Below, piece by piece: positions 26,051-40,678 of a stretch of 64,000 bases of DNA. The notes under the pieces are model-generated. The model saw nothing but the letters and a program-made list of their open reading frames with translations, was not told where the DNA came from and ran no database searches. How positions within the stretch are numbered: the stretch's first letter is position 1; each line of letters starts with the position of its first letter. Position numbers and translations under genes: made by a program. This DNA is from Escherichia coli (GTDB taxonomy: Bacteria > Pseudomonadota > Gammaproteobacteria > Enterobacterales > Enterobacteriaceae), in assembly GCF_022846255.1 (NCBI RefSeq), contig NZ_AP025682.1; one strand, 5' to 3'.

Positions 26051-27010
26051 ATGATCAAAACGCGTTTTTCTCGCTGGCTAACGTTTTTTACGTTCGCCGC
26101 TGCCGTGGCGCTGGCGCTACCGGCAAAAGCCAACACCTGGCCGCTGCCGTCAGCGGACAGTCGTCTGGTTGGTGAAAACAAATTTCATGTGGTGGAAAAT
26201 GACGGTGGTTCTCTGGAAGCGATCGCCAAAAAATATAACGTCGGCTTTCTCGCTCTGTTACAGGCTAACCCCGGCGTTGATCCTTACGTACCGCGCGCGG
26301 GTAGCGTGTTAACGATCCCGTTGCAAACCCTACTTCCAGACGCGCCGCGCGAAGGCATTGTGATCAACATTGCGGAGCTGCGTCTCTATTATTATCCGCC
26401 GGGAAAAAATTCGGTAACCGTATATCCCATCGGCATTGGTCAGTTAGGTGGTGACACGCTGACACCGACAATGGTGACCACCGTTTCTGACAAGCGTGCA
26501 AACCCAACCTGGACGCCAACGGCAAACATTCGCGCGCGGTATAAGGCACAGGGAATTGAGTTGCCTGCGGTAGTTCCGGCTGGACCGGATAACCCAATGG
26601 GCCATCATGCGATTCGTCTGGCGGCCTATGGCGGCGTTTATTTGCTTCACGGTACGAACGCTGATTTCGGCATTGGCATGCGGGTAAGTTCTGGCTGTAT
26701 TCGTCTGCGGGATGACGATATCAAAACACTCTTTAGCCAGGTCACCCCAGGCACCAAAGTGAATATCATCAACACCCCGATTAAAGTCTCTGCCGAACCA
26801 AACGGTGCGCGTCTGGTTGAAGTACATCAGCCGCTGTCAGAGAAGATTGATGACGATCCGCAGCTGCTGCCAATTACGCTGAATAGCGCAATGCAATCAT
26901 TTAAAGATGCAGCACAAACTGACGCTGAAGTGATGCAACATGTGATGGATGTCCGTTCCGGGATGCCGGTGGATGTCCGCCGTCATCAAGTGAGCCCACA
27001 AACTCTGTAA
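26051..27010 (+). CDS. ldtC: L,D-transpeptidase (LysM + YkuD domains)
   Basis: ORF 25877-27010; ATG at 26051 gives MIKTRFSRWLTFF..., 320 aa. Confidence 0.9.
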   Translation: MIKTRFSRWLTFFTFAAAVALALPAKANTWPLPSADSRLVGENKFHVVENDGGSLEAIAKKYNVGFLALLQANPGVDPYVPRAGSVLTIPLQTLLPDAPREGIVINIAELRLYYYPPGKNSVTVYPIGIGQLGGDTLTPTMVTTVSDKRANPTWTPTANIRARYKAQGIELPAVVPAGPDNPMGHHAIRLAAYGGVYLLHGTNADFGIGMRVSSGCIRLRDDDIKTLFSQVTPGTKVNIINTPIKVSAEPNGARLVEVHQPLSEKIDDDPQLLPITLNSAMQSFKDAAQTDAEVMQHVMDVRSGMPVDVRRHQVSPQTL

Positions 27011-34555: not shown

Positions 34556-34888
34556 GACATTTTCCTTTTTCAAATAGCCATGCGTTGCGCCATGCTACGC
34601 CGCGCCACACTGCGAGTATAGAGTATGGTCGAGTTAAACCTGCTCTTTCAACCTTAACTCACGATTTCTTAAGCAAAAAATCGTTTTGCTGCCGTATATA
34701 TCGCCATTATTCCCATTTCTGCCTGCGAATGCGCTGAAAAGACATTCTCTGTTTGGTTTACACGTCAAATATGAATGCGTATATTTCTCATTTGCATTTA
34801 CATGCAAAATTATTCGCACACTAAATATAACCGCTCATCACCCTCCTCCGGCATGAGCCTGACGACAACATAAACCAAGAGATTTCAG

Positions 34889-37137: not shown

Positions 37138-38571
37138 TTAGTGGTTACGGATGTACTCATCCATCTCGGTTTTCAGGTTATCGGATTTAGTACCGAAAAT
37201 CGCCTGAACACCAGAACCAGCAACCACTACGCCCGCTGCGCCCAGTTTCTTCAGGCCAGCCTGATCCACTTTAGACACATCAGCAACGCTGACGCGCAGA
37301 CGGGTAATACATGCGTCGAGGTTAGTAATGTTTTCTTTACCACCAAATGCAGCAACCAGAGCCGGTGCCATTTCGCTGGTACCTGTCGCTTTTGCATCTT
37401 CAGTCGCATCTTCACGACCCGGCGTTTTCAGATCCAGTGCTTTAATCAGCACGCGGAAGATGGTGTAGTAAACAATGGCATAACCGATACCGACGATCGG
37501 GAACAGCCACAGTTTGCTGCTGTTACCAGACAGAACGATGAAGTCGATCAGACCGTGCGAGAACGACGTACCGTCACGCATCCCCAGAAGAATACAGATT
37601 GGGAATGCCAGGCCTGCCAGAATCGCGTGGATGATGTACAGGATCGGCGCAACGAACATGAAGGAGAACTCGATCGGCTCGGTGATACCGGTCAGGAACG
37701 AGGTCAGCGCCGCGGAGATCATAATACCGCCCACTTTCGCGCGGTTTTCTGGTTTAGCAGAGTGCCAGATAGCAATTGCGGCAGCTGGCAGACCGTACAT
37801 TTTGAACAGGAAGCCACCAGACAGTTTACCCGCAGTCGGGTCACCCGCCATATAACGCGGAATGTCGCCGTGGAAAACCTGACCTGCTGCGTTGGTGTAT
37901 TCACCAATCTGCATCTGGAAAGGTACGTTCCAGATGTGGTGCAGACCAAACGGTACCAGGCAACGTTCGATGAAACCGTAAATGCCAAACGCAACTACCG
38001 GGTTCTGGTAAGCAGCCCACTGAGAGAAGGTCTGGATTGCAGAACCAATCGGCGGCCAAATGAAGGACAGCACAACGCCAGTAAAGATAGCAGCCAGGCC
38101 TGAAATGATCGGCACAAAGCGTTTACCGGCAAAGAAGCCAAGATACTCAGGCAGCTTAATACGGTAGAAACGGTTAAACATATACGCTGCAATCGCACCG
38201 GAGATAATCCCTCCGAGTACGCCAGTATCCGCCAGGTGTTTAGAGGCGATTTCTTCAGCAGGTAAATGCAGTACCAGTGGCGCAACCACGGCCATGGTTT
38301 TAACCATGATGCCATAGGCAACAACTGCGGCCAGCGCGGATACGCCATCGTTATTGGTAAAGCCGAGGGCGACACCGATCGCAAAAATCAGTGGCATGTT
38401 TGCAAAGACGGAACCGCCTGCTTCTGCCATAACATGCGATACAACGGCGGGCAGCCAGCTGAAATTCGCGGAACCGACGCCCAGCAGAATACCTGCGATA
38501 GGCAGTACGGATACCGGCAGCATCAGCGATTTACCGACCTTTTGCAGGTTAGCAAATGCATTCTTAAACAT
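37138..38571 (-). CDS. ptsG: PTS glucose-specific EIICB component
   Basis: 477 aa, full-length PtsG-like. Confidence 0.95.
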
Positions 38572-38865
38572 AATTGAGAGTGCTCCTGAGTATGGGTGCT
38601 TTTTTTACGTTCTCACGCGTGGCAAGGGGGGAGTGCCTCGCCGTGTACAGGGCATCTAAGCGCCCTTTATTTATTACACAGAGTAAAATAATTCAGTGCC
38701 GATTTGTTTGACGGCTATCACGTTTCAACTTCAGATCATTGGAGAAGTTGCACATTTTGACAAAACATATGTCACAATATTTCAAACGTGGTTATTCACC
38801 GCCCGATTTTCGGCGGTGAACTTTACTCGTTTTAGCCATTAATTACGAGCTTTAAAAAAACTCAT

Positions 38866-39663
38866 TCAACGGATGGATTGAAGGCGGGAAGCGTCGATGT
38901 GAAACAGACGGGCGAAGTTATCGGTGGTTACCTGCGCCAGTTCTTCAACGGCAACACCTTTCAACACAGCCATGTATTCTGCAACGTCACGAACCATCGC
39001 AGGTTGATTCTCTTTTCCTCGATGCGGTACTGGCGCAAGGTAAGGTGAGTCAGTTTCCACCAGTAACCGATCCAGGGGGACATAACGCGCAGCATCGCGC
39101 AGTTGCTCCGCATTACGGAAGGTCACAATGCCGGAAAAGGAGATGTAAAATCCGAGATCCAGTAATTTGCCCGCCGTTTCTCTGTCCTCTGTAAAACAGT
39201 GTAGTACGCCACCGCAATCCGTCACTTTTTCTTCGCGCAGAATTGCCAGCGTATCGGCGCGGGCGTCACGGGTGTGGACGATAACCGGCTTGTTCAGTTC
39301 ACGACCAATCTGGATATGATGGATGAAGGACTCTTGCTGACGTACTTTAGTTTCCGGCGTGTAATAATAATCCAGCCCGGTTTCACCCAGCGCTACAACG
39401 CCCTCTTCTGCCGCCAGACGACGTAAATCTTCTACATCGTAGGGATCATTCTGGTTGAGTGGATGCACGCCACAAGAAAATACGACGTTGTCGCGTTCGC
39501 CTACCAGATCCCGCATGTGTAAATAACCCGGTAATGTTGTGGCGACTGCCAGACAAAATTTCACATCGCGTGCGGCGGCTTTCGCCAGAACGTCATCCAC
39601 GTCCTTATGCAAAGATTCATAATCCAGACCATCGAGATGGCAGTGTGAGTCGACTAAAAACAT
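38866..39663 (-). CDS. ycfH: TatD-family metal-dependent nuclease YcfH
   Basis: ORF 38866-39723; start set at [11 protein letters not shown]..., 265 aa. Confidence 0.9.
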
Positions 39664-39673
39664 GATGTCTCTC

Positions 39674-40678
39674 TTAAAGATGAGGAACCGGTAGCACAAC
39701 GCCCGGTTGCAGGTAATGCTCAATACGCAGTAAAAGATCGGTGATGAGAAGCTCGCGGTTGATGCCTGTGACAGACATTAACTGTTCACGAATGTGGCAA
39801 ACATCCCCCAGTATAGCCTGCAGGCGCGAGGGAGAAAGATGGTTTGCCAGTTCGACGACCAGGCCCGGCACATCAACATTGGTCACCTGCGCAGCGCCAT
39901 GATGGCGTTTTAGCGCATCCATCAGCAACGTTGCCAGCCAGTGTAAACGTGCCGGAGCTTGTTCATGATTAAGGGCCGCTAGCAGCGAATACCAGTCGCC
40001 CGATTGCACGCTATATGCCAGCGCCTGACACAATGTTTCACGAGCCTGCCAGTTATCTCCCTGAAACAACGCCAGTGCCGCCCCAGGCGAACCGGCGCTT
40101 AAGCGCAATGCGGCAAGTAGTGCAGCCTGTGACATTGTCACTTCGCGTGAAAGCCAGGTCACGGCGTACTGTTCCGGCGGCGGCGCAAGGTAATGTAACC
40201 GACAACGACTACGTAATGTTGCCAGTAAACGTTCTGGCTCGCGGGTAGCAAGGAAAAACCACGTCTCTGCTGGTGGCTCTTCAAGCGTTTTCAGCAATGC
40301 GTTAGCCGCGGCGTCGGTTAGTAAGGCAGCATCGGTTACCCAGACAACTTTCGCACCACCTAAGCGTGCGTGCTCATTCAGCTTTTCGGTGACCTCACGT
40401 ACCGCATCAATGCCCAGCGCATTTTTCCCTTTTTCGGGAGCCAGGGTGTAGTAATCGGGATGTGTGCCAGCCTGCATCAACTGACATCCACGACAGTGAC
40501 CGCAACTTTTGTGGCCCTGCGGTTGTTGGCAGAGTAAATAACGGCTCAGGGCATAGATTAAAGCATCATCGCCCATGCCCGGTAACGCCTGAATGAGTAG
40601 CGCATGGTGACCTCTTCTGGCCTGATAGCTGGCTACCAGTTTTTCGAAATCAGGTCGTAACCATGGATACCATCTCAT
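39674..40678 (-). CDS. holB: DNA polymerase III delta-prime subunit
   Basis: 334 aa, HolB-like. Confidence 0.93.

Follow-up and report, generated by a model that had tools for sequence, protein, structure and literature searches.

The primary footprinting work on ptsG and the repressor Mlc is reportedly that of Plumbridge (1998 and 2001), Kimata (1998) and El Qaidi (2008). Operators of Mlc and of its paralogue NagC are described as 23-bp quasi-palindromes in which TT/AA at ±5 and ±6 are the sole invariant positions and ±7–11 are A/T-rich, with A/T at ±11 in Mlc sites and C/G at ±11 in high-affinity NagC sites (PMC4288165); the TT-N9-AA operator rule is also given in PMC1874608. The Mlc operators of ptsH P0, malT, mlc and manX all conform to this description: each spans 23 bp, is quasi-palindromic, contains TT-N9-AA between A/T-rich arms and has A/T at ±11. 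At ptsG itself, a ptsG-lacZ fusion is repressed ~10-fold or more by Mlc (PMC4288165), and a gel-shift oligonucleotide called the "Mlc-binding site" of the ptsG operator, used as a negative control for another protein, contains the sequence referred to below as O1 (PMC2936295). Dephosphorylated EIICB-Glc binds Mlc at the membrane during glucose transport, freeing the promoter (PMC3901232), and ptsG promoter activity is reduced in a crp mutant (PMC3105977). Under sugar-phosphate stress, SgrS and Hfq pair with the ptsG mRNA at +82 to +89, block the RBS and trigger RNase E decay (PMC3089445, PMC2760806); the same two papers give footprint and genetic data on the SgrS–ptsG pairing.

We analyzed the ptsG upstream region within a window of 64,000 nucleotides of E. 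coli, the whole stretch of DNA studied here. The coding features that bound the region are as follows.

37138..38571, minus strand, ptsG coding sequence, 477 aa, glucose PTS EIICB, from the ORF and the RefSeq annotation of the identical locus
38571, minus strand, ptsG ATG
38868–38866, ycfH stop codon TGA

The 294-bp non-coding gap proposed in an earlier sequence-only reading of this DNA was borne out, with positions 38572–38865 lying between the ptsG ATG and the ycfH stop, and so were its AT-rich blocks, the G+C content being 42% in the 294 bp vs 51% in the window. A 601-bp query over the locus, annotated ycfH and ptsG, is 100% identical in numerous E. coli chromosomes, among them Nissle 1917 and ATCC 11775, and is present as a single copy in 5,424 of 5,426 complete E. 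coli genomes. The ycfH–ptsG intergenic length in K-12 MG1655 is also 294 bp, and over 361 aligned positions K-12 and the window differ by 3 single bases, located in a hairpin loop (38805), in the spacer between the CRP site and O1 (38701) and at +41 of the leader (38634). None of the 3 falls inside any recognized site. In K-12, ptsG P1 has an Mlc operator on the promoter and CRP at -40.5, and the operator, CRP site, SgrS target and Shine-Dalgarno are identical here. For the main glucose transporter gene, these 294 bp are a textbook control region at which three inputs meet: glucose sensing, through sequestration of Mlc by PtsG; catabolite control, through CRP; and sugar-phosphate stress, through SgrS. 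All elements were located to the base in this strain, and all are unchanged from K-12. The result matters only as annotation; the comparative additions are modest and consist of the fixed CRP–operator spacing, the distance of ~168 bp between the operators and a hairpin of conserved structure that lies between them.

An Rfam scan of 38000–39400 at E ≤ 1 returned a single chance snoRNA match, outside the gap, and the gap therefore holds no known structured RNA family. On its far side, ycfH (38866–39723) appears in the mechanical ORF list with a TTG start and 285 aa; the RefSeq protein is shorter, at 265 aa (798 nt), and the listed TTG start is therefore probably an upstream in-frame artefact.

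The most prominent element of the gap is an AT-rich palindrome, which is very probably operator O1 of the ROK-family repressor Mlc, overlapping the core of P1, the main ptsG promoter. As such it is an already known Mlc operator in a conventional, deeply conserved control region. The 25-mer ttatttattacacagagtaaaataa, from which the sequence-only reading had drawn its palindrome, is found once in the window, at 38667–38691, and its terminal hexamers (TTATTT/AAATAA) are exact inverted repeats. While the presence of the palindrome and its inverted ends stood, the label "ptsG strand" did not, the string being the plus-strand reading and its form on the ptsG (minus) strand being TTATTTTACTCTGTGTAATAAATAA; because the 25-mer is nearly symmetric, this error is small. 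The center of symmetry also had to be moved, since the conserved dyad is a 23-mer centered on 38680 and not the 25-mer centered on 38679. The outer two bases of the right arm of the 25-mer, 38668–38667, are variable outside Enterobacteriaceae. A second site of the same type lies near the ycfH end of the gap.

38669..38691, minus strand, very probably Mlc operator O1 of ptsG P1, 23-bp quasi-palindrome TTATTTTACTCTGTGTAATAAAT, center 38680
38838..38860, minus strand, second Mlc-type operator O2, TTTTTTTAAAGCTCGTAATTAAT, center 38849, at -175 from P1

On the ptsG strand, O1 is laid out as TTATTTT-ACTC-T-GTGT-AATAAAT, with the invariant TT at 38686–38685 and AA at 38675–38674 (TT-N9-AA). All 10 arm positions at ±7–11 are A/T in O1, and likewise 10 of 10 in O2. 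Of the 11 symmetric position pairs in O1, only 7 are complementary. The central 9 bp are CTCTGTGT in O1 vs CG-rich in ptsH and mlc, and ptsG differs from the other regulon operators compared in having two Mlc-type sites, ~169 bp apart. A cruciform or hairpin formed by the palindrome itself was rejected, the fold reaching only -1.1 kcal/mol; as the single strand has no meaningful fold, the palindrome is to be read as a protein-binding dyad and not as a hairpin. The exact bases of O1 protected by Mlc are presumed here in line with the gel-shift oligonucleotide introduced above.

A rival to Mlc is its paralogue NagC, the N-acetylglucosamine repressor, and we considered it extremely unlikely that NagC, in place of Mlc, binds the site. 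Repression of ptsG-lacZ is reported to be unaffected by deletion of nagC and abolished by deletion of mlc. The NagC operators of nagE-nagB, glmU, galP and chb have the ROK-family architecture and the TT/AA core in common with the ptsG sites. NagC and Mlc are nearly identical in their HTH motifs, and their operator logos are almost indistinguishable. In the high-affinity NagC operators, however, ±11 is C/G; in both ptsG sites it is A/T, namely T/T in O1 and T/T in O2, which is the Mlc type. The logos share only the TT/AA core, and either protein can repress the other's targets when over-expressed, but at physiological protein levels there is no cross-regulation and wild-type NagC does not repress ptsG (PMC4288165).

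The position of O1 relative to the promoter was derived from the features below.

38674, minus strand, P1 start (+1), giving a 103-nt 5′ UTR, fixed indirectly via the SgrS footprint numbering
38680..38685, minus strand, candidate P1 -10 hexamer TACTCT, -11 to -6, inside O1, assigned from its position relative to +1
38707..38722, minus strand, CRP site cGTGA-TAGCCG-TCAaA (CGTGATAGCCGTCAAA), center -40.5 from P1, class II position
38580..38599, minus strand, SgrS pairing region, +76 to +95
38593–38586, minus strand, SgrS core AUACUCAG
38587–38583, minus strand, AGGAG Shine-Dalgarno

The ptsG P1 leader is taken to be 103 nt long. The SgrS footprint on ptsG mRNA, numbered from P1, covers A82–G89 and, more weakly, G76–A78 (PMC3089445). 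Setting +1 at 38674 puts A82–G89 on AUACUCAG and G76–A78 on GCA, matching that study, with the minor inconsistency that its "C92–C95" is one base off (PMC3089445). O1 then overlaps P1, with its center at -6 from 38674 and a span of ~-17 to +6. The candidate -10 hexamer TACTCT agrees with the consensus at 3 of 6 positions, A2 and T6 among them. A consensus promoter scan did not call P1; a promoter that depends on CRP and lacks a -35 element would be expected to escape it. The sole promoter that the scan did call, TTGTCA-17-AATGAT (38763–38735), was not adopted, the stretch being poorly conserved.

A scan for CRP sites, one of the checks that the sequence-only reading had proposed, gave its best regional match at -40.5 from P1. 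This site agrees with 8 of 10 consensus positions and has the class II form, TGTGA-N6-TCACA-like and near -41.5. A further CRP-like sequence at -72.5, with 3 mismatches and no conservation, was rejected. Together with the SgrS target beside the Shine-Dalgarno, the placement of Mlc and CRP at the promoter and SgrS near the RBS is thus as the sequence-only reading had predicted for all three sites.

To what extent the palindrome could arise by chance was assessed with shuffled sequences. The hexamer symmetry by itself is weak evidence: with hexamer arms and at most one mismatch, there is 1 match in the window vs 0.16 expected, and at least one appears in 15 of 100 window shuffles, while local dinucleotide shuffles of the 294 bp yield perfect 6-bp arms at the same spacing in 7%. 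This lack of significance, and the overlap of the left half of O1 with the presumed -10 element, would suit an account in which the palindrome is a mere AT-rich -10/start region of P1, with accidental symmetry and no dedicated repressor. We nevertheless judged that account very unlikely, because O1 matches the operators of four unrelated promoters, because the motif recurs 169 bp upstream, and because the right half GTAAWAAWT (+1 to ~+6) is conserved in 74 species although, being downstream of the start, it is not expected to hold promoter elements.

The full operator pattern gives a much sharper result in support of an Mlc operator. In the 64 kb, WWWWW-TT-N9-AA-WWWWW, the strict form of the pattern, matches 3 times vs 0.29 expected, and 0 of 100 shuffles reached 3. 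Two of the window's 3 matches, O1 and O2, fall in the 294 bp, where the local shuffle mean is 0.017 and the frequency of at least 2 is 0.002. As a positive control, the same pattern in K-12 finds one site upstream of each of ptsH, manX, malT and mlc. A symmetric matrix was built solely from the ptsH, malT, mlc and manX sites, and ~64,000 window positions were scored (mean -31.6 bits, sd 10.5). O2 scored 20.2 bits (rank 1) and O1 16.5 bits (rank 2), so that the Mlc/NagC matrix scan, another of the proposed checks, placed the two ptsG-region sites first and second in the window.

The third strict-pattern match, AATTATTCGCACACTAAATATAA at 34808–34830, is located in the fhuE–hinT intergenic region, 59–81 nt upstream of the fhuE ATG, and holds matrix rank 7; in a promoter that is AT-rich and under Fur control, a chance match is the probable explanation. 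A match at 26388–26410 lies within ldtC and was regarded as chance.

We then compared the region across species, scanning one genome per species, which gave 80 ptsG loci across Enterobacterales plus one from Aeromonas. O1 was found with 0–7 mismatches, 95–136 nt from the ATG, in nearly all loci, the exceptions being leader insertions. The left half of O1, TTATTTTA, is invariant in 74 of 74 orthologous regions and the following C in 72 of 74, while the right half follows GTAA(T/A)AA(A/T)T. On the left of O1, the six adjoining bases vary freely. Conservation of the left half-site could be due in part to the overlapping -10 element rather than to Mlc contacts. The spacing between the CRP site and O1, 34.5 bp between centers 38714.5 and 38680, is constant in 73 of 74 species.

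A phylogenetic footprint from a 75-sequence alignment delineated conserved blocks at 38860–38838 (O2, 8–9/10), 38727–38704 (CRP, flanks 9/10), 38693–38664 (O1 and transcript start), 38608–38596 (an A-run) and 38593–38569 (SgrS core, Shine-Dalgarno and ATG). The hairpin region downstream of ycfH is moderately conserved, and the stretches 38790–38730 and 38703–38694 are poorly conserved. Within E. coli, the 71-bp core from the CRP site to O1 is present in 5,424 of 5,426 complete genomes, with at most ~1 difference in nearly all of them. The sole common E. coli polymorphism in this core is at 38701, in the non-conserved 10-bp CRP–O1 spacer; it is C here and in 1,452 identical genomes, and ~3,970 others, including K-12, differ once in the core.

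The stretch 38790–38730 is AT-rich and conserved in length though poorly so in sequence. This bears on a broader reading, in which Fis, ArcA-P, SoxS and alternative sigma factors would also use the palindrome and the AT-rich blocks as a shared platform, a reading compatible with an Mlc operator. Published ptsG regulators include cAMP-CAP, ArcA, SoxS, Fis, sigma-32 and sigma-S (PMC3901232). We hold such sharing to be possible, though the less likely case.

The second operator, O2, begins 6 bp past the ycfH stop. Its 23 bp match the reverse complement of the malT operator at 19 positions by our own count, and by its sequence it is of the Mlc type; a function for it at ptsG is something we infer. 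Measured between centers, O1 and O2 are 166–170 bp apart in 65 of 68 species; the commonest distance is 168 bp (~16 helical turns), E. coli has 169, and the sequence between the two is poorly conserved. In Hafnia and Rouxiella, the distance is 175–179 bp.

Between the operators lie two further features.

38795..38820, minus strand, G+C-rich hairpin TTCACCGCC-N8-GGCGGTGAA, folding energy -18.8 kcal/mol
38820..38825, minus strand, candidate P2 -10 hexamer TAAAGT, for which the start would be ~38814, in the 5′ arm of the hairpin

Folding species by species, we found that 60 of 60 distinct Enterobacterales orthologous regions have a stable hairpin in this position, with lineage-specific stems. RNAalifold on the MAFFT columns of 38826–38788 gave no consensus structure, owing to misalignment of the distant lineages. 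A canonical T-run follows the hairpin in Erwinia and Pantoea. The E. coli tail is AAUAACCACGUUUG, with no U-run, and the terminator scan did not call the hairpin. Given the retained placement and the T-run in Erwinia and Pantoea, a ycfH terminator is the simplest reading, and judging from the sequence the E. coli hairpin is probably such a terminator with a decayed U-tract.

A minor promoter P2 is presumed to lie ~140 bp upstream of P1. The heptamer GTAAAGT (38826–38820), which follows O2, is conserved, being GTAATGT in Serratia and Yersinia, and could be either the P2 -10 element or a terminator A-tract. NagC acts at nagE-nagB through two operators and DNA looping (PMC4288165), and the ptsG pair O1–O2 may be likened to that arrangement. 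We would entertain only as a rather doubtful extension a DNA loop, dependent on helical phase, in which O1 and O2 are bridged by oligomers of Mlc, with P2 firing from inside the ycfH terminator hairpin and its transcripts escaping termination. As far as the literature was searched, no demonstration of looping at ptsG was found.

Downstream of the P1 start, the transcript carries a short hairpin near its 5′ end.

38649..38666, minus strand, 5′ stem-loop of the P1 mRNA, +9 to +26, AGGGCG-CUUAGA-UGCCCU, -8.8 kcal/mol

This stem-loop is moderately conserved, and the same hairpin was reported by the scan as terminator-like on the plus strand, where AGGGCATCTAAGCGCCCT is followed by TTATTTATTA. The T-rich part of the palindrome on the plus strand, TTATTTATT, might on this basis be taken for the U-tract of an intrinsic terminator, with its stem at 38649–38666, that stops antisense transcription from ptsG. 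However, the stem has only 5 pairs, the scan gave 2 such sites vs 0.6 ± 0.7 expected, no plus-strand gene or promoter is known upstream for such a terminator, and the hairpin already has an explanation in the stem-loop at the 5′ end of the P1 mRNA. Conservation, moreover, spans the whole 23-mer, beyond the T-run. An antisense terminator at this place is hardly credible, and we retained the Mlc operator as the reading of the palindrome.

Further along the leader, the SgrS pairing region is conserved across Enterobacterales at 9/10. Its core AUACUCAG is the exact complement of nt 174–181 of K-12 SgrS, CUGAGUAU, and overlaps AGGAG by two bases. The assignment is based on this direct complementarity and the published footprint. 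A duplex prediction with RNAduplex, for SgrS nt 151–200 against the leader, gave an unrealistic structure with very large interior loops and was set aside.

The arrangement is consistent with the following regulatory mechanism. O1 would cover the likely -10 element and the transcription start, and from this position we infer both the -10 assignment and the blocking of RNA polymerase by bound Mlc through steric occlusion. From 34.5 bp upstream of O1, at -40.5, cAMP-CRP would activate the same P1 promoter. During glucose transport, dephosphorylated PtsG sequesters Mlc at the membrane, so that O1 is vacated and ptsG induced. O2, at -175, would lie over the upstream minor promoter region, and the 103-nt leader offers the SgrS target beside the Shine-Dalgarno for post-transcriptional shut-off.

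The leader varies in length in some lineages. Citrobacter werkmanii (L003) and C. youngae (L004) have an insertion of ~123 nt in the ptsG 5′ UTR, just upstream of the SgrS site and ~30–150 nt upstream of the ptsG ATG, whose core GTGAATGACAGGAGCTTACTCGAGTAAGTGACTGGAGTGAACGAGC resembles an ERIC (IRU) repeat. In Pseudocitrobacter and two further genera, insertions of ~80 nt occur at this position (also L015, L018, L027 and L045).
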